Assembly (NCBI GenBank): GCA_030704615.1
Contig: CM060731.1
Coordinates: forward strand, 26,412,001-26,476,000
Origin: Takakia lepidozioides
Taxonomy: Eukaryota; Plantae; Bryophyta
Direction of reading: 5' to 3'
DNA: 64,000 bases
Numbering within the stretch: the stretch's first letter is position 1; each line of letters starts with the position of its first letter. The notes under the pieces were generated by a model. The model was not told the origin of the DNA. It was given only the letters and a program-made list of their open reading frames with translations, and did no database searches. Both the position numbers and the translations under genes were made by a program. Below, one piece after another: positions 600-28,608 of this stretch.

Positions 600-1894
600 A
601 TGAGGGAGGAGTGGATCCCTTGGTTCACCGTAGTCCCGCACAAAAAAGACGGTATTCATTGCAATCTATGTGCATTAAAGCTGGCGGATCGCATGTTATA
701 TCACCTCGGCTATAGAGATGGGAAGAATGCAGGGGTTAGTTTGTGCCCAAAAGCCTCAATGCGAATGAAAGCCCACTTTGCCCAATGTAGAGGCAATATC
801 CCACCGTCTCTTGATGTGGCCGCGGCTTCTGAGCCAAACACTCCAGGCTCGAATCAAAATGTCCCTCAGAGTTGTACCCATGGGGATTCTTGCGAGGCGT
901 CTGCTGTTCGTGGAGAAGCCGGTGGGTCAGGAGCAACACCCTATTGTACGCCAGCACTTGTACGGACCAGACCATTGAGGCAACAATCAATGCAAGAAGG
1001 GTTAAATTTGTCGCACAGGAGGACTTTGGATAAGAAGTGGACCCAATTTTTCTACGAGGCCAATATTCCGTTCAATGTCTCAAGGCTTTCTGCGTTTGTG
1101 GCTGCTGTCAAAGCCACGTCCGATTCCAAGTCCACATACACACCTCCGAGTTATCGCGATCTCCGCACAGGATTGCTAGAAGAGGCTATGTCTGACCTCA
1201 CCCAAAAGGTGAATGAAAAGACAAGTGATTCTCTCCGGAAATATGGAAGCACTATATGTGCGGACGGTTGGAGTTCTGTTACTAATCGACCACTGTTCAA
1301 TGTCATGCTGGTCTGTCCTGCGGGAGAACAATTTTTGGGATCCGTTGATACAAGTGGGAAGAGAAAAGATGCACATTATCAAGCAGGGTTGTTGACGAGT
1401 TTCATCGATAAAATTGGAGCTGGTAAAATTGTCCAAGTGTGCACGGACAATGCATCTAACATGGTTAATATGGCTGATATTTTGATGGTACGATATCCCC
1501 ATCTATATTACTAAGGGTATGCTGCTCATATCTTTGATCTCCTTTTGGAGGATTGGGGAAAATAATCGTGGATGAAACAACTAGTAAAAAGGGCAAAGTC
1601 GGTTGTGACGTTCATTCGTACACATCACATCCCTCTGGCATTGTTTAGAAAGCATGAACCCAAATACAGCCTTAGGAACCCGGGTGAAACCCGCTTTGCC
1701 ACAAAAATTTTGATGGTGGATCGACTGGTGACTGTGAGGGCAGGTCTGGAGCAGGTGATCATTGACCCTCAATGGGATGCGTATGTAGGCACCTTACGCG
1801 ACTCTCGTAAGTCCAAGTCTTTGAAAAAAAATCGGAGGGTCCGCGCAATCATTCACTCCGACGATTTTTGGGCGAAATGTGCAAATTTTATGTA
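600..1894 (+). pseudogene. hAT-superfamily transposase (BED-like Zn finger + DUF659), 5' part
   Basis: Motifs HCNLC..HL..C, FFYEANIPFN, PPSY, ICADGWS, QVCTDNASNM, AAHIFDLLLED, PGETRFA. In-frame TAA stops at 1512 and 1563. Interrupted by the retroelement at 1895. Confidence 0.92.
1891..1894 (+). other. Left target-site duplication TGTA
   Basis: TGTA also at 14378-14381. Removing the insert restores the hAT frame ...CANFMY-LVEPVLIALREFD. Confidence 0.9.
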
Positions 1895-1981
1895 TGTCGT
1901 GCGCATACATATCGCTACACAACTACATCGCTGTCCAAACCACACCACACATATATGCACAATAAAGTAGTCTAGCACAAT
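1895..1981 (-). repeat. Terminal repeat A, copy 2 (87 bp)
   Basis: Identical to 2340-2426. Confidence 0.95.
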
Positions 1982-2337
1982 GATAACCAAACTAGATAAG
2001 GACACACACTCTCAACACAAGAAATATGCAATCCCTCAACATCACTCTTTAAGATAATAGTCGAGCCAGGGGCACCCCAAGCTATGGGGACTCCACCCCA
2101 CAACAACCTACACTCCCATCATAAACACACTCAGATCTGAAGAATGCAGGAGCTCGGTCGCGTAGGCTCAACTCGAGAGAGATGAGCTGCGCGACTGCCA
2201 CTCTCGTGAAGATAAGACAGACCAGGTGTCAAACTAAACTTGACACCTGATTTAACACTTGTCCTAAATCCAAGTGTTAAATACAAATAACTAGTTTTAT
2301 TCTAGCTGTTTTCACACTGTGCTTATTTAACTTGACA
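1981..2337 (-). repeat. Repeat B, copy 2 (357 bp, LTR-like TG..CA)
   Basis: Matches 14021-14377 with 2 substitutions seen by eye. Confidence 0.95.
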
Positions 2338-2339
2338 GC

Positions 2340-2426
2340 TGTCGTGCGCATACATATCGCTACACAACTACATCGCTGTCCAAACCACACCACACATATA
2401 TGCACAATAAAGTAGTCTAGCACAAT
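2340..2426 (-). repeat. Repeat A, copy 1 (87 bp)
   Basis: Identical to 1895-1981; joined to B through GC within the palindrome GACAGCTGTC. Confidence 0.95.
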
Positions 2427-2428
2427 CG

Positions 2429-2436
2429 CCCCCCTA
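2429..2436 (-). other. Putative polypurine tract
   Basis: Minus strand TAGGGGGG-CG-ATTGTG directly before repeat A1; short. Confidence 0.5.
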
Positions 2437-2684
2437 GCTGGTGGATAGGTCCCTCTACCTCCACATAGCTACAAGATGTAATAGCCACAGCCGTACTAAG
2501 TCCTCTATCACTGTCTTTATCGTGCTCAAACTCTATCAACCAAGAGGCCGGGTACAAGAGTAGCCCCATCGTTAGTCGCCGTCTTGCAATCTATGAACTT
2601 GAGCCAAGATCTCGTGTGTTCAAGGTCTCCTAGTAGCTGGGCCTTGCGTTTCTTGTTAGCCTCCCATGGTTGTATCCACTCCCA

Positions 2685-5600
2685 CTATCCAATGCAATGT
2701 GGACATAACCAATCCCCATCCGGAACCATCTCAAGAGGTGGAGTCAAGCATCCCATATGCCAACCTCTAGAGCACCGATCACATACCAGCATGGTGGCTG
2801 CCCCTTTAGCAGACCCACACAACATGCACCTCAAACCTGCAGATACCACTGCCAGGTTTGGGTCAATCCTGCCATCGACATTCGGAAGGTGACATGGCGC
2901 ACAATTACGCACATGGTCCTTCCAAGTGATGCCATCCCGACCCTCCAAGACCAAGACGCCTGAGGGCAAGACCTCTCGAACCCTCAAAATAACACGTCCT
3001 GCAGTCACATCCAGGGTCGTAGGAGCAGTCTGCTGCAGATAGACATAGTCACCAGGGTTGAATCTCCGAACCCCAGGACGATAGCCCCCACCACGTATGG
3101 TAGCATACCTCAACGTATCACGGTGTTGTGCAATGGCAAGGTTCTCGAAAGCCATAGGCATGACTCTCTTGAACAACTCTGCACGCTGCTCACATGCACG
3201 TGCCCACACGTCCGGATCGTCAAGGTTAAGAACTGTAGCAGCTTCTCTGCGAATGGATGTAGGCAAATCCGGCTCTCGGCCAAAGAGAAGAAAGTATGGT
3301 GAGAAGGAGGCAAGTGATGCTTGCTTGCTGAACCTGTAGCCCATGGCTAACCAGGGTAACTGAAGGTCCCAATCTCCTAGGTGTCCCTTCTGCAAGCCAT
3401 ACTTGCGCAAACCCCTCTTTACTGTCTGAACAACTCTCTCTGCCAAGCCATCGGCTTCAGGATGATCCCGAGAAGTGGTGCGGTGGTCTATCAAGGCCTT
3501 GTCACACAAAGCCTGAAACTCCCCCAAGAACTCTCTCTCTTGGTCCGTGAGTACCTCAGCTGGAGCACCGAATCGGCTAAGCACACAATCCAGGAATGCA
3601 TACGCAGCTCCCTCACTAGCCTTATCAGGCAATGGAACCAATTCAATCCACTTGGAGAAGTGCTCCACCATCACCAACACGTACTTGTTGTGGCGCATGG
3701 TCAGTGGCAACGGCCCTGCGAAGTCAAGACTCCACCTGTAGCCCAATCCCATGATCGGAAGAGGGTGCAATTGTGGAGTAGGGGCGTTGAATGAAGCACG
3801 CACCCTGTCACACACCATGCACCTAGCCACAAAGTGTTGTACCTCTGTGTGCATACCACGCCACCAATACTGCCCCTGCAGTAGACTATGAGTGCGTCGC
3901 ACCCCAAAATGCCCCAACTCCTCATGGGCATGCCGCACTAACCGTGCCCGCTGTGTTGGGTGAGGCACAATCCTCACTCGACCATCCTCCCACACTCGGA
4001 GCAGGTGTGTCCCCTCCCACCTGAACCTCTTGGCTCGTTGTAGGATCCGATCCCTCTCCTTGGCAGTCATAGTGGCTGCCGTGTCTCCACTGCGGAGGTA
4101 GTCCAACACAACTGAATCCTCATGTATATCTTTGGCGCCACCCTGCTCATTGCTGGCCTCAGGGTCCTCAGACACTTGATCTACAGTCATCCCTGTTGTA
4201 GGTCCAACCTGGCCTTCCGCTGCCAAGATACACAGAAATGCAGATGCATGCCATCCGGGCACCATCTCCTCGTCCGTCTCACCATGCCACCGAGCTCCAG
4301 TGTCATCCTGTTGGCTCGTGCATGGATTGCGACTCAACCCATCTGCATTTCGATTGACCAAACCCGGTCGATGCACCACCTGAAAGTCATACTCTTGAAG
4401 GATGAGTGCCCACCGTGCAAGCTTCCCCGTAAGCTTGTCTGACTCCATCAACCACTTGAGTGGTTGGTGATCCGTGACAAGAGTGAAGAGATTGCCGTAT
4501 AAATAGCACCTGAAGTGTGCCACGGCCCACACTGCAGCTAAGCATTCTCCCTCATATGAGCTATACTTAGACTCTGCAGCATTGTTCGAGCGGCTAGCAT
4601 AAGCCACTACGAACTCTCTTCCCTCATCATCCACCTGTGTGAGCACCGCTCCAAGCCCCAGCATGCTCCAATCTGTATGCAGCTGAAAAGGACGCCCCCT
4701 GATAGGTCGTCTCAAGATGGGCGCCGAGGTCAACCTCGCCTTGAGCTCTTGAAAAGCTTGTTCTTGCTCATCTTCCCACTGCCACTCCTGGTCCACCTTG
4801 GTCAGCTTGGTTAGAGCCTTTGCAATGGCACTAAATCCCTTAACAAACCGTCTGTAATAGTTTGCTAACCCCATGAAAGCTCGAACTCGGCTCACATCCG
4901 TGGGGCGTGGAACCTGTGCAATGGACTCTACCTTAGTCTGCTGTACCCCCAATCCTCCAGGATATATCATGTGACCCAGATACTCAATCTGGTTGTGGAA
5001 AAACTTGCACTTGCCCGGATGTAACTTCAATCCGTGCGTCCTCAAGCGCTCAAATACCCCCTGAAGGTGTCTCTCATGCTCCTCCACCGTAGCACTAAAG
5101 ATGATGATGTCATCTATGTAGCACCGAGCAAACTCCACCCCTGCTAGAATCCTGTCCATGACTCTTTGAAACTCAGCGGGAGCGTTTTTAAGCCCAAATG
5201 GTAAGAACCGCCACTGGTATAGGCAATCCTTCCCGTGCTCATTGATCCCCCAGAATGCCGTCTTTTGCTTATCCGCCTCCTTGATCGGCAACTGGTGATA
5301 TCCGGATCGTAAATCCAACGTGCTAAAGACCTTGGAATGCCCAATGGCATCAAAGATCTCCTCTGGTGTTGGCATGGCATACCTATCGGACTTGGTCTGA
5401 CGATTTACAGGCCGGTAATCACCGCACATACGTCTCTCCGTCCAATTGCCATAGACATCCTTCTTAGCTGGCATCACTGTGGCTGAAGCATACTCTCCAC
5501 CAGAGAGCTCCACCAAACCTGCCTCCCAGAGATCTTGAGTCCTCATCTGAATCAAAGACCTCTCCATGTCACTGTATCTATAGGGTCTCCGAAAGATTGG

Positions 5601-5819
5601 CGTGTCAGTGGCCAACTCAATACGGATCTCTTGACCCTTCAGTGCTCCCAAGTCCTTCAAACTGAAGGCAAAGCAATTCCTGTAAGCCCTCAGGAACCGC
5701 CGTATACGTCGTCTCTCTCCTCCGGTGACAATGGGTCCAATGTCAGGCTCCCAATTGTCCTCCGTAACTGCAACCTTAAGTCCAGTGGGCTTAGAGGTAG
5801 AGGACGCGTCCCGTGGTTG
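2685..5819 (-). CDS. pol: Pol: reverse transcriptase, RNase H, integrase, C-terminal PHD finger
   Basis: RT CGDYRPVN, LDLRSGYHQ, PFGLKNAP, YIDD; RH TDWS/TDH/NADGLS; IN HAHEELGH..CMVC, LDFAG, TDQ, AERVVQ; PHD CMLC..CDRC..HMGC..WLCPHC. The frame stays open upstream of the listed 5660 start up to the TAG at 5820-5822. Confidence 0.95.
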   Translation of the reverse strand, partial: QPRDASSTSKPTGLKVAVTEDNWEPDIGPIVTGGERRRIRRFLRAYRNCFAFSLKDLGALKGQEIRIELATDTPIFRRPYRYSDMERSLIQMRTQDLWEAGLVELSGGEYASATVMPAKKDVYGNWTERRMCGDYRPVNRQTKSDRYAMPTPEEIFDAIGHSKVFSTLDLRSGYHQLPIKEADKQKTAFWGINEHGKDCLYQWRFLPFGLKNAPAEFQRVMDRILAGVEFARCYIDDIIIFSATVEEHERHLQGVFERLRTHGLKLHPGKCKFFHNQIEYLGHMIYPGGLGVQQTKVESIAQVPRPTDVSRVRAFMGLANYYRRFVKGFSAIAKALTKLTKVDQEWQWEDEQEQAFQELKARLTSAPILRRPIRGRPFQLHTDWSMLGLGAVLTQVDDEGREFVVAYASRSNNAAESKYSSYEGECLAAVWAVAHFRCYLYGNLFTLVTDHQPLKWLMESDKLTGKLARWALILQEYDFQVVHRPGLVNRNADGLSRNPCTSQQDDTGARWHGETDEEMVPGWHASAFLCILAAEGQVGPTTGMTVDQVSEDPEASNEQGGAKDIHEDSVVLDYLRSGDTAATMTAKERDRILQRAKRFRWEGTHLLRVWEDGRVRIVPHPTQRARLVRHAHEELGHFGVRRTHSLLQGQYWWRGMHTEVQHFVARCMVCDRVRASFNAPTPQLHPLPIMGLGYRWSLDFAGPLPLTMRHNKYVLVMVEHFSKWIELVPLPDKASEGAAYAFLDCVLSRFGAPAEVLTDQEREFLGEFQALCDKALIDHRTTSRDHPEADGLAERVVQTVKRGLRKYGLQKGHLGDWDLQLPWLAMGYRFSKQASLASFSPYFLLFGREPDLPTSIRREAATVLNLDDPDVWARACEQRAELFKRVMPMAFENLAIAQHRDTLRYATIRGGGYRPGVRRFNPGDYVYLQQTAPTTLDVTAGRVILRVREVLPSGVLVLEGRDGITWKDHVRNCAPCHLPNVDGRIDPNLAVVSAGLRCMLCGSAKGAATMLVCDRCSRGWHMGCLTPPLEMVPDGDWLCPHCIG

Positions 5820-8126
5820 CTATGCTGCAACCTCTTGAGCAGTACCCCCTTCCTGCTCAGTCAATGACAAGGCCTCATCCTGCCCCATCATCTCATCATT
5901 GAGAACCTCCTCATCCCGAGAAGAATCCCCAACCTCATCCATCACAGCTGCCTTCGCTGCCAACTCCCTCTGAACCTCGAGCACCTCCCACATGTGCCAT
6001 GGATGTCTACACCTCGTGGTCCTCACCGGCTCGCCCCCACTCGCTGCCTGTACCGTCTCGGTAGGCAGAGAGACCATCAAGGGAAGTGCGCTCCGCACTC
6101 TACGTTGCTCAGCCATAGCCAAGCTGACAATCCAGGTCAAGCAATTGAGATCCATTGCTTGCCCCAACACCTGACGACGTGATGCCTCAGAAAGGGAAGG
6201 CACCGCCGTGGTCCCAGTGGAAAACCCCATAGCCCGCTCTCGCTCGTCGGCATTAGGCTCCACTAACTGCTGCAACTGAGCATCCCACAGGAGGCCAGGT
6301 CCACCATCCCGAAAAGCATGGGATCCTGGGAAGCTGAGCAGTGTAGGTAATGCTGCTCGTGGTTGACCCACTCTGTTGACCACTGCCAAAGGCGAACGGT
6401 CATCGTGTCTCACACGTTGAGACTGCCTTCCTGTGTCCAAAATGCCATCCACGGTGAGGTGTGCTGGCCGCTGCACCCCATCAAATGCACGCTTGAGCAG
6501 TGCGGGTGGCATCAAGTTAGTCCACCATAGTCGTGGACGATGAGCCCGTGACCCCACTGCAGCTGCATCCAGCAATACTGCTGACCCAAGCCACGACCGG
6601 ACTTGATGCACACTGGCCATCACCCTGGCCCGAGAATCACCCATCAGTGGCACATTCTCCAAGATGTATGCCGGAGATACAGCCTGATGAAGCTGCAAGT
6701 GGCGCAAAATCCGCACCATCTCCCAAAACAGACCCGTCCTCGAGTCTCGCAATCCATTGCCATGCCCGGCTGATGAATGCCCTTGGCAGGGCCAACCTGC
6801 CACTACCAGATCAATGGAGCCAACCCGCTCCAAATCCTGCGCCCCCAGCAACGCAATGTCTGCTGGCAAGGCCTGCTGATATCCACGAACTGCAGACACC
6901 GGCAACAACTCAGGGTGCTGCTGCACCATCTGAGCAACATGGCGCAGTGAGACGCGTCGTGCAGTCTCATCCCTCTCCACATACAGGTAACGTCGAACTC
7001 GTACACCTGCCTGCAGCACTGCAGCCAATCCAGTGCTGATCCCGCCAAATAAGTCCAGAAGGCATATGCCTTCATCCGGTCGCTGCCACACAAGAGGTGT
7101 GGTGTCCAATGGCGACAACTGAGGTGGCCCTGGTACAATCACCGCACTCTCCTCCTCTCCTGACGGTACAAAAGCTTCTACCCAAGCTTGTTGCACCCGT
7201 CCATCAGCAGCGTGCTGCAAATCCTTGCTCGTACCCCACAACGGAGTGTGAGCAACCATGGCAGGCAACTCCGCCGTACCATGCATGTCATCCTGCTCTG
7301 CTGGAGGTGGCACATCCTCTGCATGGGCATTGCCTTCCAGCAACTCTCCAGGCCAGCTGACTGCAGCTGTGAAGGCGGCTAGTGTTGGCATCTTGCCCCG
7401 CTGAGCAGCTGCAATACCCCCAATGAATGTCACAGGGAGCTGTGCACGGCGACCATCCCCTGACTGCCATCCAGGCCTGTAGGATGCTGACTCCTCCCAG
7501 AAATCCAGGGTGAAGCCCATGGGGTATAACACTGCCCCACCAACGAGGACATCGTAAGAGACCGCGTCTGTCACAATGGCCTTGGCTCGCATCACTGAGC
7601 CATCTACAGGATGATCCGGCTGCAGTCTAATAGCCAACTGATGCCGTGTCATGCCGCGAGCCTGCTCTGATCCTCCCAGAGATGTCTGTATCTGGAAAGG
7701 ACAAGGCTCCATATCCGCCTCCATGAGGCCCAAACCTGCAATAGCAGCTCTGCCCAACATCAGTGGCTGAGCTCCTGAGTCCAACAAGACCCGCAGTGGC
7801 CGGTACTTCTTGCCTGCCGGTCCACTCAAAGTGAAAATGCCTCCCTGGTTGTCTAACAAGACAACTCCAGGTGTCACCATGGCGCGCTCAAAGGCTGGCC
7901 TAGCTGGCAGCTCCGTCAATCTGGCAGCTGCAGCTTGCCAGGGCGCTGCCGTGGCAGTCTTGACCCTCAAATCCGAGGATCCCTCTGCCACTACACCTTC
8001 CACTAACTCCGCAGAAGATGAAGTGACCTCTCCACTCTCGCAGAGTGTTGCTGCTAGTCTGAACACTGCAGCTGGTCTCACTCCCGGCGTCGCAATCATG
8101 GTGCCGAGAACAGTGGGGCTTGACAC
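5820..8126 (-). CDS. Aspartic protease + C5 cytosine DNA methyltransferase (retrotransposon-encoded)
   Basis: Protease VLLDSGA..DVLVGG (~7480-7810). MTase motifs I LDLFGGI, II YVERD, IV GWPCQG, V DSRTGLF, VI ILENV, VIII HRPRLWW, X LGQAMD (~6120-7070). Confidence 0.93.
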   Translation of the reverse strand: MSSPTVLGTMIATPGVRPAAVFRLAATLCESGEVTSSSAELVEGVVAEGSSDLRVKTATAAPWQAAAARLTELPARPAFERAMVTPGVVLLDNQGGIFTLSGPAGKKYRPLRVLLDSGAQPLMLGRAAIAGLGLMEADMEPCPFQIQTSLGGSEQARGMTRHQLAIRLQPDHPVDGSVMRAKAIVTDAVSYDVLVGGAVLYPMGFTLDFWEESASYRPGWQSGDGRRAQLPVTFIGGIAAAQRGKMPTLAAFTAAVSWPGELLEGNAHAEDVPPPAEQDDMHGTAELPAMVAHTPLWGTSKDLQHAADGRVQQAWVEAFVPSGEEESAVIVPGPPQLSPLDTTPLVWQRPDEGICLLDLFGGISTGLAAVLQAGVRVRRYLYVERDETARRVSLRHVAQMVQQHPELLPVSAVRGYQQALPADIALLGAQDLERVGSIDLVVAGWPCQGHSSAGHGNGLRDSRTGLFWEMVRILRHLQLHQAVSPAYILENVPLMGDSRARVMASVHQVRSWLGSAVLLDAAAVGSRAHRPRLWWTNLMPPALLKRAFDGVQRPAHLTVDGILDTGRQSQRVRHDDRSPLAVVNRVGQPRAALPTLLSFPGSHAFRDGGPGLLWDAQLQQLVEPNADERERAMGFSTGTTAVPSLSEASRRQVLGQAMDLNCLTWIVSLAMAEQRRVRSALPLMVSLPTETVQAASGGEPVRTTRCRHPWHMWEVLEVQRELAAKAAVMDEVGDSSRDEEVLNDEMMGQDEALSLTEQEGGTAQEVAA

Positions 8127-10016
8127 ACAGAGGTGGCTGCTCCCAATAACACACCGGCTGCACTAGCCTTGGTAGTAGGTGTCAATGCTGCACGGGTAGC
8201 TCTTCCCAATGGCATAGTAACCTCCGCCTCGGTAACAGTCGGGCGAGAACTAGGTGCCATGGATGGCGTTGACACTGTCTCCGCCAAGGTGAATGACTGA
8301 GGCAGCCTTGCCTGACGGCTTGCCTCCCCACGTTGTGGATCCAACTCCACCTCTGCACCTCGTGGCTCAGGAACTCGTGTTGCTCCTCGAGTCACGGCTG
8401 CAGCAGACTCCACCTGCTCTAATGGTAGTGCTGCTCCGCACATGAATCCCATTCCGCCCATATCTCCTCCCTCAGGAGCAGGAGGTGGCCATCCCGCCTG
8501 GGAGCCGGTACCGCCTGAGCTATAGCCATGGCAGCGAGCCTCTGCTCTAGCTGCTGAAGCCGATTGGCCATGCCTTGGTCAACACCCTGACCTCCGCGTC
8601 CTTGGCCATGTGGAGGTTGCCCTTGGCCTGCACCTCGTGCCCGACCACCTCGTCCTCTTTGGGCTGGTCCACCTCGCCCCCGGCCACCATTGTTCCCTTG
8701 GAACTGGCCTGGGCGCAACTCAGGATGCAAGTCATAACACTGGGCATCTCCATGCCCATACTTGCCACAATGCCCACACTGCAACTGTGCAGGCTGTGCT
8801 TGTGCCGGCCTTCTGCCACTCTCTGGGCAATCTCTCTTGACATGGGGTCCTCCACATGTCCAACATATCACCCCTGGTTGCTGTTGGCCTGCAAAAGATG
8901 CCACGGGCCTCTGCACCTGAGGTCCCCTGTAAGCTCCATGGAACTTGGGCTGGGCAACCTTGCCCCCCTGACCACGCTGTTGGGCAGTCCCTTGTGCTTG
9001 TGGGCTGACAGCTGTGCCCCGTACAGGCATGTCCTTACCAAATCCAATTGTAACAACTCGCTCCTCCACCATGTTGAGCTCAATCCGCTCAGCCAGCAGA
9101 AACACATCTGCTAATGTGGGTTGGGCTGCTTGTAACAGGGTTGCATCTCGCACCCTTCTCTTGAGCTCCTTGTCCAGAATTCCATACCAAAACTGGATTG
9201 CCTGAGCTTCAGTAACCCCTTGGGTCACACTTATCAAGCGCCTCATACGAGTGTACGCCTCTCGCAGGCTCTCACTGGGTTTGCGCTGGAAGTCTTGCAA
9301 ACTTCGCAGCTTCTCTGTCCGTACACCTTGGTAGTTCCTCCGCAACTCCTGGAAGAACTCCACCACCGGGTTGAATCTTGGCAAATGTGTTGTAGTCGTG
9401 GCAGGAGAGTAGCACCTTTTGAACTGGTACCACCTTCAGAAGTACCAGCACTACTTGCTCCACTACTAGTGCTGGCAGTGGGAGCTATTGGTACTGATGC
9501 AGCTACTGGTCGCGTCGTGCCTCGAGTAATGGAGACGTAGTCAGGTGACCAATACATCCTCCACTCCTCAATCTCTGCTTCATGTCCTCGCCTGAACTCG
9601 TGGTAATCGTCCATAGGCGGGCCTTCCAAATGCTGGAACAGTCCCTTCCACGCCATGAATGGGGTGAATAGCTGTGGATTGCGCATCTGCTGCAAATCAC
9701 ACCAGCTGTCGAACTCCTGGATAAAGTCATCCAACTCGATTGTGCCCACAGCTCCAGAGTACCTACGAGGCCCCTTGGTAGCTCCATACATCTCCTCCAT
9801 GTCGTCCCACAACAATGGCGAATGAAAGTGCACACCTGTTGATGAAGCCTCCGAGTCTGTGTCTGACGCTACAGTAGTTGAGGGTGGCGGTGAAGGTGGT
9901 CTGAACCGAATACCTCGTCTTGTGAACCCACTCTCACTGTCACTGCTTGTAGCCGTACTCCCCTCAAAACCCTTGGGTAACTCCGTAATGACACTCACAA
10001 TGTGCACCTCCTCCAC
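8096..10016 (-). pseudogene. gag: Gag with two Zn knuckles, split by three -1 frame changes (~9400, ~8500, ~8110)
   Basis: PRRYSG..LDDFIQEFDSWC; FQRKPSESLREAYTRM; CWTCGGPHVKRDC; CGHCGKYGHGDAQC; RGG tract; AVTR linker. Confidence 0.85.
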
Positions 10017-10535
10017 GTGACACTATAAGGCTCTAGTACTAATCTAATAGTGACACGGGTGGGCACCTGTTGCAGTCTAAGGGTCATATCCCAATGGCTC
10101 AGGGCACCTGCACCTGCATCCACCGCAAGAACTCCTATGGTTGGCTGGTCATCAACCCAGCCTCACCATAGAAGAAACACTGGTGGTCTTGCTGGTCATC
10201 ACTCCAGCCTCACCACCGACAGCATACTCTAGGATTGACCGGTGATCAAATCCGGCCTAATCCCTATGAAAGCAAGCGCCCACACAAAACCAACATGGCG
10301 CACAGTCAAGCATGCAGGTGTTGGGGGGGATCCAAACACAAGAAATCAAAACATCAACACCCCCACACCAAAATCCAGCAGCAACGCTGATCCTGCAGAA
10401 TATCCCAGCCCAAAACCCCGGACTGACTGGCCTCCACCAAGAGAGGCTTTGGCAACTACAAGTACAAGGTAATGAAAATAGTACAGAGATGGAGGGGAAG
10501 AATAGAAGCCCGCCCAAGCAAGATCTAATCCTGAT

Positions 10536-11285
10536 CTATGCTATCAACTTCCAGACTTCTCTCAAAGTGCCTCGCTCTGCTTGATGGTAAGGTGTAGGAG
10601 GTATATCTATGTCCAGAAACCTGCCACTAACCTTGTCCCAAGCTACAGTAGCTCGCTCTAACCAACCCTCCTCCTCTTTCTGCCAGGTAGAGACAAAGCA
10701 ACACTCTGCTATCTCCCGCTCACTGAACACTAAAGAAAACAAAGGTAGGGTCTGATAGTCTCTCAACTCGAAAGCTTTGAGACGATTGCGGGTGTCCTCA
10801 TTGCGAATGACTGCATCGCCTTCAAACAGAACAAACTTGTCCTCGCTAATGAACCCCCGCTCGTGGTTGCCTTGTGCAGAGCGTGTCCGACTGCAACACT
10901 GTCTAATTGCACAAACTTGTGCAGCTCCTGCTCCTCTGCTCCAGTACACCACGGCCTTGTGGCTGAACACCTTGGTCCCCGGGGCTGTCTTTGGCTGTGT
11001 TCCAAGCCTAGCTTTCACCCACTTTGGTATTTCACCTACAGCTGCAGAACTGCTGGCTCCAACAGAGTTCTGACTGTTCAAGGCGATATTGAGGCCCTCA
11101 ATGCCAACTACAGCAGTCTGTTGTCTACTGCTAATGCCTGACTCCCAGTATGCAATCAACTCGTCCAACTGTTCTCCACTCAAATCAGTCTGAGTTCCTT
11201 GGGAAACATAAATCGTGTCCCCTTGTGTGCACAGACTAAGAGAAGAGACCTGCCCTTCAATTACGTCCTCATTTCCCCCAGCCAT
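10536..11285 (-). CDS. Additional sense-strand ORF of the retroelement, unknown function (249 aa)
   Basis: Intact ATG ORF upstream of gag on the same strand; no recognisable motif. Confidence 0.5.
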   Translation of the reverse strand: MAGGNEDVIEGQVSSLSLCTQGDTIYVSQGTQTDLSGEQLDELIAYWESGISSRQQTAVVGIEGLNIALNSQNSVGASSSAAVGEIPKWVKARLGTQPKTAPGTKVFSHKAVVYWSRGAGAAQVCAIRQCCSRTRSAQGNHERGFISEDKFVLFEGDAVIRNEDTRNRLKAFELRDYQTLPLFSLVFSEREIAECCFVSTWQKEEEGWLERATVAWDKVSGRFLDIDIPPTPYHQAERGTLREVWKLIA

Positions 11286-11983
11286 GCATGGAGTACATCC
11301 ACCAATTTGTCTCTCATATAGACCAGCACAGGTTCTAGAGACAGGATTGTGGATCTTTCATGGCACACTCACACTCTAAAAATTCCATAGATTTTTAGCA
11401 GAGTCCCCAAAACAGAAACCAGGTTTAGATAGGTAGATTTCCCCTTTCTGCAGCTATCCCCCCAAAAACTGGGTCAAACAGAGTCCATTTGACAAAGATA
11501 TGATGAATTTGGCTCCAAATCATTCAAATTAGATTAAAAAGGGGGGTTTTTTTTTTTAAAGGTTTTCAAGTTTTTTTTAAATTCAAAGTTACACCCAAAA
11601 TATCTGGTAACTGGTTCCCGGTTCCCTAAGTTCTATATGGCATCCTAGGTTCCCTGGCCACGTGCCTGCTGTTCCCCTCCATTTCATTTGAGTTCAACAG
11701 CTCACCATGCTTTGGAATCCCAACCGTCTTCTACCACAAACCGTGGTGACGATGGAGTTCGTGAAGCGATCCTTCCCAGTGAACCCTCGAGAGACGAGTC
11801 CCCTGTGCACTTGATATACACTCTCTTAATAGAGATCAAAATCAGCAAGGAGACACCATTGACGACACCCAGAGATCAGAGACAAGTACTTGCGCAGTTC
11901 GGAGGCCACAGCATCCCCTCTGGACACTGAGCGGGGAATAGCTGCTACACAGCAGCTCAGTCTATCGTCAGCTCCTATACCTA

Positions 11984-12900
11984 CTAGCTTCCTGCCCCTG
12001 CCATAATCAAAGAGACAAGTGACACAACACCAGCTGGAAACACCTTTCCTGAATTTTTGTATCGAGAGCCCATCACAAACAAGAGAAGCCCTGAAACAGC
12101 AACACCGATAGAGGACGCAAGGACAGGGTTCGAGGGCAGGTTCAGATAGACATAATAGAGGATCAGAGCTGACCCTCCCCCTGACAGCAATGACTTACTG
12201 CTCCCAGACCAACAAGGACTGCATACGCCAAGGTCAGCTTCTGCGACATAGACAGCTTCATCTTTCCGTCACCACTTCCCTCTTCCTGTCCTCCCTCACC
12301 ACCGTTCCTGTTGCCTCCATTGCCCGACACTTGGGTTACATGCTCAGCCAGACCTTCAAAAACCTGGCCCAAAATTCACTGGCTGCTCGGACACTGACAT
12401 GACCAAACCTCTTTAACTCCAATCAGCCTGCTGCTGAGTTACGATCTCATCACCAAGCAAAATCTATCCCAATGCCCAGTTGAGCTGCCAGTCTCGCATT
12501 CACTTTCCCCACCAAGGCAGCTGCAGTACACTGACTGTCTTAGCTCCCTCCATGACAACCTCCCGCATTTGGGCAAGTTCAGCTTCACGGACCTCCCAGC
12601 GACTTAGCAGCTGCTTCAGGTCATGGTCCTAGCTAGCGCATGCTGGGCTGCAACCAGTTGCAGATCCTTATCGTGTAGAAACCCCTTCACTGCTCTCTTT
12701 CCATCTCCTGATGCCATGCTCCATCCTCCAGCCACTTCACTTGTTTCAGGCACCCAGGTCCCTATGGGCAGGTCACATGCTCCTGTGCCAGCCAGAACAG
12801 TGACATTCGACCCCTTCGTCTTCAGGAACAAGCTGGTAGCTTCCTTGATGTCATCAGTTTCCTGGACACTTAAACGGCAGTATGGTCGCCACCTCTAATT
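11984..12900 (-). pseudogene. Intronless captured copy of a plastid FAX/TMEM14-family (fatty acid export) gene
   Basis: SMSQKLTLAYAVLVGLG / SLLSGGGSALILYYV..PVLASSIG..VMGSRYKNSGKVFPAGVVSLVSLIM resembles plant TMEM14 FAX proteins. Internal deletion/frameshift at ~12200; N-terminal part degraded; upstream boundary approximate. Confidence 0.8.
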
Positions 12901-13210
12901 GAGGCAGTAGTGGTGACGAAAGGAGAAGAGAACACAGGGAAAGAGCGAGGAAAAATAAGGGCGGAGAACTGCTCATGTCAAAAGGTCAAAGCCAAAGAGG
13001 TCGAAACATTGTGCGAAGGGGGACTGTGTTTCTGCTGCCCTCTCCCACTTCACGCAACATTCAGCGTCCAGAGAGTGAAGTCCCTCAAATTTAGAGAGTG
13101 AACCCACCGGCAACAGGAGTGCTCTCAAGCGGACATTGAGCGCCCTCCACTGACTCAGTTGAGTGTGCAAACCTTTCTGCTCATGCAGTTCCAGCAGTCA
13201 ATACTCACTC

Positions 13211-13702
13211 CTAGTGATGATGATGTTCATGCCCTAGAAGACCACCCTCTCCTATCACCTTCAACTGAAAGACTGGACTGCAGACTGAGCATTCATACTG
13301 TTTGTCCTTCTCCAGCTTGAACCATGTCACATCATGCTCATCCTCACCAACACCTCCTGAGCACCCAACTATCCGCTCATCATAGTGTGACTCCACAATT
13401 GCAGGGGCATCCTTGGTTCCAAAGGGACCACGAGGCGGATCCAGATCAAAGCGCTTCCCACCCGAGCGCTCCGCTTCCAACTCCTCCAGCTCAACTCTTG
13501 TTGCAATTCCAAAATCGCCCGAGCTGCCTCCTGCACTTGCCAAATCACGACTACGATGCAACCACCGCGCATATGAGAGACCCCGATGTTCTGATTGCTC
13601 CGCTTGCAGTTGCGGGTTACACAGCAATGTCGGTGGAGGCACACATGGTACACGCCTGGATGCAACCAACCGTGAGAGCCTGCATCCAGCCGTCCTCAAC
13701 AT
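13211..13702 (-). CDS. COX5B: Intronless captured copy of cytochrome c oxidase subunit 5b with presequence
   Basis: GPFGTKDAPAIVESHYDERIVGCSGG..EHDVTWFKLEKDKQYECSVCSPVFQL; Arg/Ser-rich N-terminus from ATG 13702; lies inside the retroelement. Confidence 0.9.
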   Translation of the reverse strand: MLRTAGCRLSRLVASRRVPCVPPPTLLCNPQLQAEQSEHRGLSYARWLHRSRDLASAGGSSGDFGIATRVELEELEAERSGGKRFDLDPPRGPFGTKDAPAIVESHYDERIVGCSGGVGEDEHDVTWFKLEKDKQYECSVCSPVFQLKVIGEGGLLGHEHHHH

Positions 13703-14004
13703 AGCGCCCCACTCCCTCTGGGCCTTGCCATCACACCACCAGCTGCCATCGATATATCCTCCGCAGCCGGCGACGCCCTTACAGTGGAAGCACACCTCGC
13801 CAATGCCAACAGAAATATGGGCAGACCACCATTACTCTCTCTTCTACCACACCATTGCGACTGGAGATGTGAGACGAACTCAAGCTAGAGCCGTTCTATG
13901 CTCCTTGCTTGAGCTGCGTACAAGACCATGACCATCTATATTATAATAGTGCTTAAAAAAAACAAAAACATCATATCTAGCTTAGCACTGGAAAACTAGA
14001 TAGT

Positions 14005-14021
14005 GCCCATCTCTCTCGAGT
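14005..14021 (-). other. Self-complementary primer-binding site (pairs with 14211-14227 inside repeat B)
   Basis: catctctctcgagt (14008-14021) is the exact reverse complement of actcgagagagatg (14211-14224); no TGG tRNA-type PBS. Confidence 0.75.
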
Positions 14022-14377
14022 GATAACCAAACTAGATAAGGACACACACTCTCAACACAAGAAATATGCAATCCCTCAACATCACTCTTTAAGATAATAG
14101 TCGAGCCAGGGGCACCCCAAGCTATGGGGACTCCACCCCACAACAACCTACACTCCCATCATAAGCACACTCAGATCTGAAGAATGCAGGAGCTCGGTCG
14201 CGTAGGCTCAACTCGAGAGAGATGAGCTGCGCGACTGCCGCTCTCGTGAAGATAAGACAGACCAGGTGTCAAACTAAACTTGACACCTGATTTAACACTT
14301 GTCCTAAATCCAAGTGTTAAATACAAATAACTAGTTTTATTCTAGCTGTTTTCACACTGTGCTTATTTAACTTGACA
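14021..14377 (-). repeat. Repeat B, copy 1 (5' terminal, LTR-like)
   Basis: TGTCAAG...GGTTATCA on the minus strand; matches 1981-2337. Confidence 0.95.
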
Positions 14378-14530
14378 TGTACCTCGTGGAGCCGGTGTTG
14401 ATTGCTTTGCGGGAGTTTGATGAAAAACAACCAATAATGGGTAAAGCATGGTTGATATTGGAAAACCTTGAGAAGCACGTGCAATCCTTGATTTTCTATG
14501 GACGATGATTTGGCGGCAAGGACCGAGGAT
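14378..14530 (+). pseudogene. hAT transposase continuation after the insertion (includes right TSD)
   Basis: YLVEPVLIALREFDEKQPIMGKAWLILENLEKHVQSL; no C-terminal dimerisation domain seen afterwards (deleted). Confidence 0.85.
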
Positions 14531-16160: not shown

Positions 16161-16249
16161 AAAGGCTAGAAACGTAGGGAGTAGGCCAAAGGTCTCAGGT
16201 TGCGAAAACTTAAATGTGCAACCCACTGTATAGTCTACGTAATTTTTGG

Positions 16250-18050
16250 AAATACGAGGTTCATCCTTTGAACCATTTTTGAATGACCTCATACTTGTTC
16301 GGTATTTGTTTGACGGCATGTACAATATACTGGCAAAGTTTCAAAACAATCAAAAATTACTGAATGAAGATACCATTGGTTCACCCATTGCAATATTTTA
16401 AATCGAACTCATACTTGTCCGGTACCTTTAAGAGGGCATGTACAATGCAATGGCAAAGTTTGCAAGCATTCAGAAATCGACACATCAAGTAACCATTGGT
16501 TCCTCCTGTGAACCATTTTTTATTGATCTCATACTTGTCCGGTCCATGTAAGAGGCATGTAGAACATACTGGCAAAATTTCAAATCATTCAATTTTTTTT
16601 TGATCAAGGAACCTTTGGTTTATCCTTTTCACCATTAACGATTAATCACAAATAAATGAACAAACGAATAAATCGTTTGCCTCCAAATGATTTTGGTTCG
16701 CTTTGAGACATGGCCAATATATTCAATGTGCCATGGAAGAGGCCCCAGAGTAATATGAGATCAATCGAAATTCGTTCAATGGGCCAACGGATGGTTGCCC
16801 ATCCAAATGATTTTTGTTTGCTTTGAGGCTTGGCCAGTGTGTTCAATGTACCCTCTGATAGGTCCCAGTGTAATATGAGATCAATCGAAATTCGTTCAAT
16901 GGGCCAATGAGGCGTTCAGTTGTCATCTGTTTTTTTTCATTGCGAAAAAGAAATCCTGTAATGTGTGCACGGCTATTGCACCCATTGAACGGATGTGGTT
17001 GAAGCCTCTCTTTTGCTTGCATGTGCTTGAACATGTGTGTGACACATGTGCGGAGACATAACAGACGAATAGATCATTTGCCTCCCCATCGACACCAAGC
17101 CATTTCATAATGTAATTGAATTTAAAATTATTTTAAGCCAATAAATAGGGGGTTTCTGGCAAATAGGGCCTTTCATTGGGGGTTTTCTGGCACGTATCGA
17201 TTTTGTTTTTGGCTCAATTTTGTTTTGCGGCTTCAAGCATCCCATTGCTACTCCCCCGCCAAAATTTGGACCAATCAAAAATGCCCCAAAAAATAAATGT
17301 TCTCTTCGCTCACTATTGCAGAACTCTCTATGAAGAGTGCATGAAGTAGAGCACAAATCAAGTTTGGAGTGCAAAACGGGCAAGAAACTGTGGTTTTGGG
17401 TCCAAATGAATTTTGATCACTCCCAAATTTGGCACGCACCAAAAATGGAATGAAAAACAAAACATGAGCACGAGAAACGCAGTCCAACACGTCCCAAAGT
17501 AATAATAGATCCAACAGAATACATTCAATGGGTGAACGGATGGTTGCCCATCCAAATCATTTTTGTTTGCTTCCAAACTTTGCCAGTACGTTTGAGACAC
17601 CTTCTCATAGGTCCCGGACTAATATCAGATCAATCAAAATTCATTCGATGGCTCAATAGATGGTTGGCCATCGAAATGATTTTGGTTCGCTTTGAGACTT
17701 GTCCAGTATATTCAATGTACTATGGAAGAGGCTCCAAAGTAATACGAGATCAACCAAAATTCGTTCAATGGGCCGACGGATGGTTGCCCATCCAAATTAT
17801 TTTCGTTCGTTTTGAGACTTGACCAGTGTATTCAATGTACCCTCTGATAGGTCCCAGTGTAATATGAGATCAATCGTTAACGATTAATCATGAATCATCC
17901 AACAAGGGAACTGTTGGTTCACCCTTTGAACCATTTAACATTGACATCATATTTGTCCAGTAACTTTAAGAGGGCATGTACAAGACACTCGCAAAGTTTC
18001 AAATGAATCCAAAATCATTTGGCAAGGGAATGATCGGTTCACCCAAAGCC
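16250..18050. repeat. 120-bp satellite with an internal inverted, diverged block (16635-17890)
   Basis: Unit ttggttcaccc..catacttgtccggtacc..gagggcatgtacaa..gcaaagtttcaaa at ~120-bp spacing; reverse-complement-like units in the centre. Confidence 0.85.
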
Positions 18051-18054
18051 AATT

Positions 18055-18270
18055 CAGGGGCTGAAATTGCCATTTATGGGGCTCGAATTGCCAATTTGAG
18101 GGGCTGGACTTGCAATTTGAGGGGCTGAAGCTGCCATTCCAAGGGCTGCACTAGCAATTGCCATTGCACAGGCTACAGATGCAATTTGAGGGGCGGGAAT
18201 TGCCATTTCAGGGGCTAGAAGTGCAATTTGAGGGGTTGGAATTGACAATTTCAAGGGCTCAAATTACAAT
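18055..18270 (+). repeat. ~21-bp tandem minisatellite
   Basis: Repeated gcaatttgaggggctg..attgcc units; related degenerate tract at ~20350-20480. Confidence 0.8.
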
Positions 18271-18599
18271 CGTCGTCGTACCAGATGGAACTAGGTACAG
18301 CTATAACTTCTGTCACATGACGTGTAGTATGTTTCCATGGATATCCATGTTTCAGTTTGGGTACATGCATACGTGTACGGAAATAAAAATGGTGGAATAT
18401 GTGTACCCAAGAAAGGGTTTGGTGGTTGTGCGTGTGTTTGTGTTTCGTCATTACCTTTACATTGTTGATTTCCTATTATGGTTTCGAAAGCCACAAAGGC
18501 CAGGTGCAGCTCCCAACATTCATCTTCCCTTTCACAAATCCATGGGGAGTCGATACATGTGCTTTTCATCTGCCTCTCCAAACATACATACAGGTGCAA

Positions 18600-18790
18600 T
18601 GGGACCAACCTCCTAGTGGTCGCACCTATTTTTTTTAAAACAATAGTGCGACCACCAGTAGCGGTCGTCGCAACTGTTAAAATAAAAGAAAAATGTTGCA
18701 ACCACTCCCCTGCTGGTAATCGCACATATTTACTGATTTAATAGGTAGTAAGTTAGTACGTAGTAATGGGGGGGTTCCCTTATATAGCCT
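18600..18790 (+). repeat. GCGACC palindrome cluster followed by TATATA
   Basis: gtgcgaccaccagtagcggtcgtcgca and similar; TATATAG at ~18781. Confidence 0.7.
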
Positions 18791-19070
18791 CTCAAGGCGG
18801 TGGGATCCTTCTAGAAGCCCGCCGACCCTTGGAGCTTTCTAGAAGGCCCTGAACACATGTCAACCCAAACAAAATCAAGCTAGCTTGCATTCCTGCGCCA
18901 ACCCGCATTTCCGCCACAGGGCAGAGGAGGTACATACAACATTGTGGGGTCAACCGTTCGTCAACAACAAGGTCCCTTATTTATTTGCGGCCATGTTGTA
19001 CACATGGTTGATTTTATTGCGACTAGTGGATTGACAAACTGCCACTGCGAGATAACATACTAGACTATAC

Positions 19071-20299
19071 ATGTTCTCTGATATCCCAGACTTGTATATA
19101 CGTCAGGGGCAGGACATCGTACGGTTGGCTGGAAACGACGAGGTGGAAGAAGGAGGAAAGGCAGACCAACCTCTAGATTATATGCCGCAACAGGTTTCCG
19201 CAGCCAGGCCTTCAACGTCTGAGGTGGAGGGGGGCGAGGTACGCTCTCCGTTGGAAGAACAGTGGGCTACACATGAACAGCACATCAAGGACCTACACGA
19301 CATTGTTCATTTGCAACGGTGGAAAATAGCAAAGTTGCTGGAAAGAATGGGGTTGGGGACTCTCGACAGTGTACGCGGTGTGCTTCAGGACCCGAGGCCA
19401 ATCACCAACGAGCAAGACATATTGGCGCGTTGAATATGCCACCAATGGACATTGACCGCGTCATCGACGGGGTTGACTCAATCGGGCATGGGAATGAAGT
19501 GCAAACGCCTGAACTGGACCCGGCGAGGGTTGAGGAAGAAAGACTTGCGGCGGAGAGGGCAAGAAAAGGGAAAGACCCCATAGTGGAAATTGGGGAATGT
19601 TCAGCCGTGCAAATTACATCAGCCCAGGAACAGGAATTAGAGCAGCTTGTGGGGGAACGCGAGCAAGCTAGGGTTGTTGCATATCGGTACTCAAATGCCA
19701 TGCAAATCCGATCGTGGCCATGGTTGAAGGGGAATTGGCGGAATTGGGTGACATGGGCAGGCCATCTAGCATCGCGAGAAACACGGATAGAAAAAGCGCT
19801 GTCCTCCCTCCAACGTGCAGCACGTTTGTCGAATCGAAACATAGATAGCATCTATGCTAATTTGCAAAGGCATGACACTGTGCGTGATGTATTCACGTCA
19901 AAGTACACTGGATTCACCACATGGGGTGATGTGGATGCCATGTTTGAGCACTGCGTGCATACAATTTCCGATACCAATAAGAGCATAAACTGGGATTTGG
20001 AAGTAGAGGAGGAGTGGGATAGTAGGCCGAGGATGTCATCCAACATTCATGAGGATAAACGGACGTGGATACCACAGAGCAATCCAGCGTCATGGGTAAC
20101 AGATGGTACGGTGTACACAATGTGCCTAAACCCTTACGGACCGGAGGGAGACTATATGCTTGGTTCATGTGGCCATTGGTTCCATCCCACATGTCTCATA
20201 TCGGCAGCCATGCGAGCCAGCCAATGCCCTGACTGCCGTGGACCAATCCATCGACGTTTCTACGAGTTGTTTGGGTTGCAAGACCATATGCCCACGTGA
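19071..20299 (+). pseudogene. Coiled-coil + C-terminal RING-H2 protein, frameshifted
   Basis: (Y)TMC..CGHWFHPTC..CPDC with the first Cys replaced by Tyr; overlapping ORFs 19071-19433 and 19319-20299. Confidence 0.7.
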
Positions 20300-20519
20300 T
20301 ACGAGTACAACCGGTACAACATGCCATTGGATGTATCGCCTTACGATTTTTTAAATTGGGTTGAGGGGCGGCTGGGGTTGGTCATTTTAGGGACTAGCAT
20401 TACCAATTTTAAGGGCTTGAATTGCATTTTGAATTGTAATTCAAGGGTTACAATGGGCCATTGGAGGGCTAGAATTACCAAAGCAATGACATCCAAAGTA
20501 ATATAAAATTATTTGATAG

Positions 20520-21740: not shown

Positions 21741-21907
21741 GACCCGGTGTACACTGTCACTCTTCAAAATTCATGGGTGTGGTGCTTGATTATCCCATAT
21801 AATGGACCCAGGTGCCATGACCAAGTAACAAACCATTAAAACATTATGGTACGAGACAAACACAATTGAAAATAATATTTATTCAAACATGATGTACAGT
21901 CAGAGGT

Positions 21908-25868: not shown

Positions 25869-26482
25869 TGTACATAGAGAAGTCCTTTGAAATAAAGTAA
25901 GTCATCTTTGAATTTGAAGTTGTTTATAACATGTGGGTTGTCTCGAGGTCGATTTCGTTGACTTCGTAGTGTTGTAGCAAATTTGTCGCTCTTCAGTGCT
26001 TCCTGAATCTCCTTTATGATCTCTACATCGTCATAGGTGGACATGGATAACATATTCAATTGGAGATTTGCTGATTTCAAGATGATGGATTTCTGTTAGT
26101 CAAAAGCTGCATCTCTTTCTTTTGGCGCAAGATATGATCGTCGAGAAAGAGCATCTGGTTTTTCTTGAAGATGTCCGGGACGGTAGGTAATAACAAAATC
26201 AAACATTGCTAGTGACATACTCCATCTCGCTTGACGTCGATTCAAAACACGAGCACTCAGAAAATACTCGAGGTTTTTGTGATTGGTATAGACAGTGACA
26301 TGATGTTTAGCTCCCTCCAATAGATGACGCCACTCCTCAAAAGAATCAATAATCGCTAGAAGTTCTTTGTCATGGATTTCATAATTGATCTCCGCTGCGG
26401 AAAATTTGCAAGAACAAAAACCAACAGGGTGAAGTCGGCCATCTCTACCATATTGAGAGAGTACTGCGCCAAGTGCAAAGTC
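25869..26482 (-). mobile_element. Gypsy RNase H fragment (opposite orientation, older layer)
   Basis: [43 protein letters not shown]. Confidence 0.88.
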
Positions 26483-28397: not shown

Positions 28398-28608
28398 CAA
28401 GGCTACCAGAGCTGAACAAGAACAAGAAAACAGCCAATGGCTCTTCCCCTCCTTTAAACTAGCACGATCTCTTGGGAAGGGGGCAAGAGGTCCATCATCT
28501 ACCAACCTTGTTTCTTCTGTTCCGATTCAAGCTGTTCTATCTACTAACTTCAAGGCTTTGCATTGTCCTCTCAGTAGGTAGACTGCTGGCCAGCAGATCA
28601 GTCCCCTC

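Follow-up and report, generated by a model that had tools for sequence, protein, structure and literature searches.

The closest described counterpart of the element reported here is KnitGypsy-Dnmt3 of Klebsormidium nitens (de Mendoza et al. 2018, PMC5890265). The available sections of that paper describe DIRS-like repeats and a DNMT3 domain under purifying selection (Ka/Ks < 0.2), presented as acquired in the K. nitens lineage, and the authors' review reply places the domain in one open reading frame (ORF) with reverse transcriptase (RT) and ribonuclease H (RNase H). Here we analyse a Ty3/Gypsy-type retrotransposon with its own DNA methyltransferase (DNMT) in the moss Takakia lepidozioides, found in a 64,000-nucleotide stretch of contig CM060731.1 (positions 26,412,001 to 26,476,000), which we call the window and from whose first letter all positions are counted.

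DNMT3s of DIRS-class retrotransposons methylate CG de novo in yeast, according to the same sections of PMC5890265. One of them, SymbioDIRS-Dnmt3 of dinoflagellates, is active on CG in that assay and resembles the window element in its C5 cytosine methyltransferase (C5-MTase) and split repeats, but has a tyrosine recombinase where the window element has a DDE integrase. The EpiLTRs of Cymbomonas and Euglena are also retrotransposons with a C5-MTase, but theirs, as the accessible text describes it, is a DNMT4-related domain combined with DAM and a chromodomain (bioRxiv 10.64898/2026.05.21.726589). One review states that 'land plants, such as tracheophytes' lack such elements (PMC6338049), and later papers cite 'streptophytes' and, in the portions available, leave land plants unnamed (bioRxiv 10.64898/2026.05.21.726589; PMC12344493).

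The window element shares with KnitGypsy-Dnmt3 the Gypsy domains, an intronless and unpermuted DNMT3-like domain, split repeats and purifying selection. It differs in its land-plant host and in a conserved stop that separates DNMT from RT, which share an ORF in Klebsormidium; self-priming, 4-bp duplications, a PHD finger, read-through and one-sided B-internal-A forms are likewise not part of KnitGypsy-Dnmt3 as the available sections describe it. Compared by description only, and with one defining feature different, the window element is probably of the KnitGypsy-Dnmt3 kind. According to the original prediction, made from the DNA letters, DNMT-carrying retrotransposons are not known to have been described in embryophytes. 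The literature searched, seen partly as excerpts and with subscription journals and Repbase outside its range, also holds no description of a bryophyte element, its stop or its junction pattern, and the available parts of 10.1101/2021.11.30.470311, PMC6453930, PMC11982613 and PMC12885004 contain nothing on this Gypsy-DNMT family.

Organization of the element

The element lies on the minus strand within a hAT transposase remnant (DUF659, Pfam E 1e-28).

1895 to 14377, minus strand: whole Ty3/Gypsy-type element with TG...CA ends, within the hAT (DUF659) remnant (ends, empty site, Pfam)
1891 to 1894: 4-bp target-site duplication, left copy
14378 to 14381: 4-bp target-site duplication, right copy
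14021 to 14377, minus strand: repeat B1, the element's 5' end, containing a predicted self-primer at 14211-14224
14008 to 14021, minus strand: primer-binding site, 14 nt complementary to the inside of B (predicted self-priming, without a tRNA-type TGG)
8102 to 10001, minus strand: gag in three frames (9495-10001, 8515-9381 and 8102-8416), with a CCHC knuckle at 8737-8778 (tblastn of P0205 and P0218)
7473 to 7847, minus strand: aspartic protease, DSG motif at 7770-7787 (motif; relatives weakly match gag-asp_proteas and Asp_protease_2)
6129 to 7076, minus strand: DNMT3-type C5 cytosine methyltransferase domain, motifs I-X unpermuted (Pfam, motif, solved-protein and fold searches)
5814 to 5822, minus strand: in-frame TAG followed by CAA-CCA (UAG-CAR-YYA read-through consensus)
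5705 to 5811, minus strand: long stem predicted downstream of the stop, with arms at 5793-5811 and 5705-5726 (support weak and post hoc)
2685 to 5819, minus strand: open frame of 1044 codons, RT to PHD (Pfam)
4965 to 5435, minus strand: RT (Pfam)
4389 to 4778, minus strand: RNase H (Pfam)
3459 to 3959, minus strand: integrase zinc finger and core (Pfam)
2694 to 2828, minus strand: C-terminal PHD finger (Pfam)
2427 to 2435, minus strand: polypurine tract, adjoining A1
2340 to 2426, minus strand: repeat A1
2336 to 2341, minus strand: internal A-B junction CA-GC-TG, resembling two joined element ends
1981 to 2337, minus strand: repeat B2, 355/357 identical to B1
1895 to 1981, minus strand: repeat A2, the element's 3' end, 87/87 identical to A1, with base 1981 common to B2

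The coding-strand order is B, primer site, leader, gag, protease, DNMT, TAG, RT, RNase H, integrase, PHD, polypurine tract, A, GC, B and A, a split-repeat layout that can be written B-internal-A-B-A. The DDE integrase (rve and H2C2 domains) and the order Gag-protease-RT-RNase H-integrase are those of Ty3/Gypsy elements; two matching long terminal repeats (LTRs) are not found, the ends being B and A. Pfam gave no tyrosine recombinase match in the eight frames scanned, and a PHD finger instead of a chromodomain after the integrase. The insertion is recent, as 2 of 357 positions differ between the B copies, the count that the original prediction had given, and 0 of 87 between the A copies. An empty-site joint from 1890 to 14378, with four shared letters, occurs in three of four runs (X1, X6 and X7). 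Within repeat B, 14248-14285 is an internal copy of the repeat's own terminus, with a short inverted repeat around it.

The original prediction had called the methyltransferase intact, a word that holds for the DNMT domain and the frame from RT to integrase, and fails for the element as a whole: relative to the unbroken relatives P0205 and P0218, gag has three frame changes, which the earlier reading had overlooked. Retrotrans_gag matches below its cut-off (E 0.0016), and contigs of the host runs vary in length near 8101, 8488 and 9407. The window copy is unable to make Gag, protease and DNMT in one frame, and was probably moved in trans by other copies. In run X1, which may be the window's own sample, summed depth (not a copy number) is 0.64-1.3 million over 2562-10319 and 1,300-5,000 over 11613-13767, which fits a very abundant family with a copy-specific leader. 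CpG observed/expected is 0.39-0.58 in the element and 0.43 in the window background, values that are uninformative on self-methylation.

A DNMT3-type domain under purifying selection

Upstream of the stop, a minus-strand ORF of 780 codons (5823-8162), without internal stops, encodes a retropepsin motif (LLDSGA, 7770-7787) and, after it, the motifs of a C5-MTase in their canonical order: I (LFGGIS, 7035-7052), II (YVERD, 6969-6983), IV (AGWPCQ, 6783-6800), VI (ILENVP, 6648-6665), VIII (HRPRLWW, 6522-6542), IX (ERERAMGF, 6222-6245) and X (LGQAMD, 6150-6167). The Pfam search that the original prediction had proposed as a check matched PF00145 with 48.6 bits against a cut-off of 22 (E 1e-12), and the C5-MTase that it had named, with its motifs ordered and unbroken, is borne out.

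By sequence, the best solved relatives are DNMT3A (E 5e-11, at ~22-25% identity), DNMT3B (4e-8), DRM (6e-6) and HhaI (2e-4). A structure model built on a 16-row alignment (mean pLDDT, the predicted local distance difference test, 85) returned DNMT3 structures as all matches listed by Foldseek. In a wide fold search the model scored highest with DNMT3A (Z 26.2, root-mean-square deviation 2.5, 258 aligned) and DNMT3B (Z 26.1), with lower scores for M.MpeI (22.7), HhaI (19.9), DNMT2-type enzymes (19.0-19.6), DNMT1 (16.8), ZMET2 (15.9) and MET1 (15.4); an ESM Atlas search with the domain led to generic C5-MTase clusters. The domain is DNMT3-type, and both its sequence and its predicted fold are nearest to DNMT3A/B. 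It shares with host DNMT3s (mammalian DNMT3A/B and plant DNMT3) the motif order and the predicted catalytic fold, but it has no introns, and the Pfam scan found no PWWP, ADD or other host targeting domain on it. Unlike DRM it is not permuted, and motif order together with the fold ranking leads us to reject an origin from DRM, CMT or MET1.

The residues expected to matter for catalysis are nearly invariant over the 84 rows of the domain alignment: the catalytic Cys is present in 80 rows (the other four being gaps), the Glu of motif VI (ENV) in all 84, and the two Arg of motif VIII in 81 and 80. Common variants were taken from runs X1 and X6, where 40 of 57 are listed; of those listed, 29 fall in the domain, 20 synonymous and 9 non-synonymous (pN/pS, the ratio of non-synonymous to synonymous polymorphism, 0.16; binomial p 1e-6), and the linker has a pN/pS of 0.35. 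Between families, dN/dS (the corresponding ratio for divergence) is 0.075-0.168 in five of seven pairs, dS being saturated in the other two; within families it is 0.12 for L045/L046 and 0.48 for L023/L071. The DNMT domain is under purifying selection, and neutral evolution (dN/dS near 1), which the original prediction had listed as an outcome that would count against it, is not what these ratios describe. That the domain is real, selected and of the DNMT3 type is close to certain, and in our judgement it is very probably catalytically active.

A conserved stop between methyltransferase and reverse transcriptase

The original prediction had placed the methyltransferase between protease and RT within the polyprotein. 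The gene order stands, and the single polyprotein does not, since an in-frame TAG at 5820-5822 closes the frame before RT; the enzyme is in the Gag frame, not the RT frame, and the earlier reading had overlooked this stop. We surveyed it in 64 loci, comprising L019-L081 of 80 metagenome loci and the window, with 17 distant or very short loci excluded. Both the DNMT end and the start of the RT frame are present in 43 of the 64, and grouping at 85% nucleotide identity gives eight families. Loci are not independent counts, as a single family, which groups with named Sphagnum proteins (support 99), contributes 33.

In 42 of the 43 informative loci the last in-frame stop lies 42-66 nt upstream of the conserved start of the RT frame (29 TAG, 13 TAA and 1 TGA over the 43). 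The stop is followed by CAR-YY in 40 loci and six families, and by the exact CAR-YYA in eight loci and five families. The six bases 3' of the stop are kept while those 5' of it vary, and none of the common differences listed from X1 and X6 falls at 5814-5822. This conservation across loci rules out a chance mutation of the window copy. The first Met of the window's RT frame is ~85 codons in, within conserved sequence. Unbroken Gag-protease-DNMT frames in Marchantia and other relatives are ~1280-1440 amino acids long and end 90-130 amino acids past the domain.

UAG-CAR-YYA is the type I read-through motif of tobamoviruses, and UAA also works, as reported in the available part of PMC3542737; the window and four other families have the identical nine-base signal, here between a DNA methyltransferase and RT. 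Conservation of the stop and of its CAR-YY context points to read-through and to enzyme amounts at the level of Gag, and suppression of the stop by programmed read-through is, on this comparative evidence, likely. Retrotransposons offer a parallel in the read-through signal before env in SIRE1-type elements.

Some 10 nt 3' of the stop, both arms of the predicted stem change sequence between two groups of families. Duplexes formed from a family's own arms have energies of -12.5 to -24 kcal/mol, those across groups have -2 to -15 kcal/mol, and 7 of 11 are stronger than 95% of shuffles. The stem is weak support, because its arms were chosen after inspection, RNAalifold finds no consensus structure after the stop (0 pairs), and single-sequence z-scores there (-0.25 to -3.3) overlap controls along pol (-2.4 to +0.5); the last two results belong with the observations set against the proposed mechanism below.

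Relatives in bryophytes and algae

Gypsy-borne DNMTs in bryophytes are real, selected and widespread, and the earlier reading had overlooked this spread, including annotated Marchantia genes and algal relatives. Among 7,990 scored candidates, 79 longer proteins match at E<=1e-10; those with names come from Marchantia polymorpha (18), Sphagnum (2), Calypogeia fissa (1) and Closterium (2), plus one Chrzof1 model, presumably Chromochloris. Marchantia polymorpha has unbroken Gag-protease-DNMT frames annotated as hypothetical, for example Mp_5g06330 and Mp_4g09160. A profile search with a 7-row alignment gave 485 clusters at 50% identity (E<=1e-30), of which 20 were looked up: 7 Closterium, 1 Scenedesmus 'pol' and 12 without an organism label. 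No vascular-plant names occur among the named matches, in searches too limited to mean absence, and no proteins named Klebsormidium were found in protein searches that were word-limited or mostly without organism names and so give no evidence of absence. A viral collection gave 1 and 17 distant matches, none of which was used. One polyprotein with a DNMT, P0068, is labelled as a bacterial metagenome-assembled genome and is probably misbinned eukaryotic DNA.

The relatives have two layouts, one with protease and DNMT before RT and one with DNMT between RNase H and integrase. In midpoint-rooted FastTree trees built from element-borne domains, a single branch of the RT tree (support 99) sets the 19 rows with the RNase H-DNMT-integrase layout apart from the others; in the DNMT tree 28 of the 29 rows with that layout cluster (support 98), and the remaining one is a partial Marchantia gene model. 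This split by layout indicates that DNMT has long been carried by these elements and that its position changed once, in one direction or the other. The group with DNMT between RNase H and integrase is large and consists of Gypsy-PHD elements (P0046-P0070 and P0237-P0379), whose named members are chlorophyte (Scenedesmus pol and Chrzof1); the literature searched, partly available as excerpts, holds no description of it.

The host is a land plant, as the original prediction had it. The window's eIF3a is 92% identical over ~629 residues to those of Sphagnum, Riccia and Marchantia. Diphasiastrum follows with 90% and Physcomitrium with 87%, and named algae and flowering plants do not exceed 81%. 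In a quick tree of 25 rows without a hornwort, the window's eIF3a falls in a moss and liverwort group (SH-aLRT, an approximate likelihood ratio test, 96) and, weakly, with the mosses (87). The gene occupies 55900-64000 on the plus strand (56.3-64 kb), and its 3' end has a 159-nt tandem duplication at 63532-63849.

Possible roles of the enzyme

We propose that this is a bryophyte Gypsy element whose Gag-protease frame ends in a DNMT3-type enzyme, with the stop read through for RT and integrase and the enzyme packed at capsid levels to methylate the element's own new DNA; as a whole this has slightly better than an even chance of being right. Intact copies would make a Gag-protease-DNMT protein, and ribosomes leaking through the stop at a few percent would add RT and integrase, so that DNMT would be made with Gag, and RT and integrase only by the leak. 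The element protease may then free the DNMT within the particle, where it could methylate complementary DNA (cDNA); packaging with methylation of new cDNA was among the roles that the original prediction had suggested, and it is still the reading that we prefer. The family's own cDNA is, by this reasoning, somewhat favoured as the main substrate. The likely benefit would be that new copies arrive methylated and pass as ordinary heterochromatin, or limit their own expression.

Several observations weigh against this account, in addition to the structure predictions above. The finding of no variant at the stop covers 40 of 57 rows, and 13 of 43 stops are TAA. The largest family has CAA-CCC rather than CAR-YYA, an ATG next in most of its copies (six bases after the TAG), and T-rich, splice-acceptor-like bases upstream of the stop. 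Four copy pairs of that family have dN/dS of 0.35-0.56, with RT similar, which is consistent with copies decaying after insertion. P0232 (2811 amino acids), whose RT groups with the clade of the window element (support 99), is a single frame with no stop, and some relatives carry DNMT between RNase H and integrase. Relatives without the stop or with DNMT inside Pol mean that Gag-level amounts are not required in every lineage. Finally, the Klebsormidium domain produced no methylation in yeast, a result that its authors judge inconclusive in the available sections of PMC5890265.

Action in the nucleus on chromosomal DNA rather than on particle cDNA, with integrated copies (as copy-number control), competing elements or host loci as targets, is unlikely, if a serious candidate. 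Gag-level amounts would be far above the need of one cDNA, the integrase PHD finger has a chromatin-reader fold, and the DNMT3s of plant hosts work de novo and on heterochromatin (PMC6453930, sections available). However, every architecture seen has DNMT either as a Gag fusion or within Pol, both of them routes into the particle, and by Pfam the DNMT lacks a targeting domain of its own.

We give the same low standing to the idea that the stop is real but that splicing, re-initiation or a second transcript, not read-through, gives access to the RT frame. The T-rich stretch and ATG of the largest family suit such a route, DNMT and RT are joined in some gene models from Marchantia and Sphagnum, and plant elements commonly have a two-frame layout that starts with Gag-protease (PMC6317226, in the text available). 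Yet the joined models P0006, P0008, P0012 and P0044 skip the stop at four different points, like invented introns, and the window family and four others lack the ATG and T-rich stretch while keeping CAR-YYA and both frames in register.

That the domain binds nucleic acid or methylates element RNA, DNA methylation not being its role, appears very unlikely. The yeast result with the Klebsormidium domain would agree with it, structural-protein amounts would suit binding, and DNMT2-type enzymes share the fold; against it stand the near-invariant Cys, Glu and Arg residues and a fold nearer DNMT3 than DNMT2. The window copy does carry captured host sequences, but a one-off host-gene capture making the domain a neutral passenger, like the COX5B and TMEM14 pieces described below, is refuted and has practically no chance of being correct: depth across the domain is that seen along pol in general, with far less over the captured pieces, the domain holds the same position in at least eight families, it is under purifying selection, and the profile search found it in hundreds of clusters.

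Priming, ends and integration

The 14 nt at the end of B1 that are complementary to the inside of B can form a 17-bp helix (z -3.7, matched by 0 of 200 shuffles). In the Sphagnum-like family the sequence differs but the complementarity of the primer site to B recurs, 17 nt long in 3 of 11 loci, 8-11 nt in six and absent in two. Self-priming is known in the Gypsy elements Tcn1 and Tf1 (PMC6317226, text available), and a self-primed reverse transcription would fit their pattern. As described in the available text of Neumann et al. 2019 (PMC6317226), Tcn1 resembles the window element in self-priming, predicted here, and Phygy and Selgy in being Gypsy elements of non-seed plants; unlike Tcn1, Tf1-Sushi, Phygy and Selgy, the window element has a PHD finger instead of a chromodomain, split repeats and a DNMT. 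The survey was restricted to elements with matching LTR pairs, and no PHD or methyltransferase domain occurs in its main text, as far as available.

All four complete insertions (window, L042, L050 and L056) have 4-bp duplications. Past the polypurine tract, the 3' end reads A-B-A in the window, L056 and L069, and A-B up to the contig end in L022, so that DIRS-like split repeats are found in the window, L056, L069 (3' part) and, partially, L022; this recurrence rules out a one-off rearrangement. The 3' ends of L030, L036 and L042 finish after the first A, and L042 (5994-14633) is a complete B-internal-A insertion with a 4-bp duplication. The A-B junction is CA-GC-TG in three of four cases and CA-AT-TG in L069. 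The B-A junction varies: it is direct in the window, has one extra base in L056 and L069, and has 16 extra bases, including primer-site sequence, in the rearranged L050. No A was found upstream of the 5' B in 15 loci. Elsewhere, an inverted A repeat lies upstream of gag in L027 (6215-6327) and L029 (6225-6337), and L031 has a B repeat without a primer site (1676-2015).

The junction pattern is what would be expected from a two-LTR circle opened at its internal junction, and B-internal-A forms could arise from a double-junction cut of a linear copy or from A-A recombination. No locus shows B-A-B-internal-A, the mirror form, an absence that a simple circle model leaves unexplained. For retroviruses such circles are dead ends, and for IS3-type transposases they serve as substrates. 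A more ambitious proposal, which we consider speculative and distinctly improbable, is a Gypsy lineage spread across green plants whose A-B...A-B cDNA would have its ends joined into a two-LTR circle that the DDE integrase opens at the internal CA-GC-TG, giving B-internal-A-B-A. Capsid-level DNMT3, set by read-through, would methylate the new DNA and may mark one of the two identical CAGCTG sites, which would confine cutting to the productive site.

Leader sequences and the rest of the window

Three further features lie upstream of gag in the window copy.

13214 to 13831, minus strand: COX5B-like intronless host sequence in the leader, low depth (PF01215, E 4e-17)
11987 to 12375, minus strand: TMEM14-like host sequence in the leader (PF03647, E 1.5e-11 on 11987-12268)
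10539 to 11357, minus strand: open frame of 273 codons with no family match, high depth in host runs

The COX5B-like piece is probably a copy-specific capture. Between 11613 and 13900 the leader holds intronless host pieces in sense orientation, perhaps more than these two, and they look like messenger RNA captured via template switching; contigs of run X5 cover them and then diverge from the window at the piece edges. The 273-codon frame has no Pfam match, is absent from the fetched loci and is possibly a family-specific extra ORF. An ESM Atlas lead to TraN was below threshold (score 0.88, recognition 1168) and was rejected.

Elsewhere in the window, 16223-21807 holds arrays of 120-nt and 21-nt repeats, in which 19277-20299 ends with a RING-like Cys/His pattern. 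Other LTR remnants occupy 26096-32500, among them an RNase H piece (26096-26569, minus strand) and a decayed Gypsy gag-pol (27356-32482, plus strand) with strongly depleted CpG (0.21) and no methyltransferase seen. An open frame of 1245 codons (40621-44358, minus strand) has long internal repeats at a spacing of 144-558 nt.

Implications

These results extend the known range of DNMT-carrying elements to land plants, and bryophyte methyltransferase counts and methylome studies may contain element-borne enzymes. Tools that need matching LTRs would overlook the elements, whose split repeats and 4-bp duplications hint at an unusual integration route. The role of retrotransposon-borne DNA methyltransferases has stood as a question since 2018, the known hosts being difficult experimental organisms. 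The conserved stop yields a prediction on enzyme amount, and, as the family is abundant in bryophytes and has unbroken frames in the genetic model Marchantia polymorpha, that role is directly testable.

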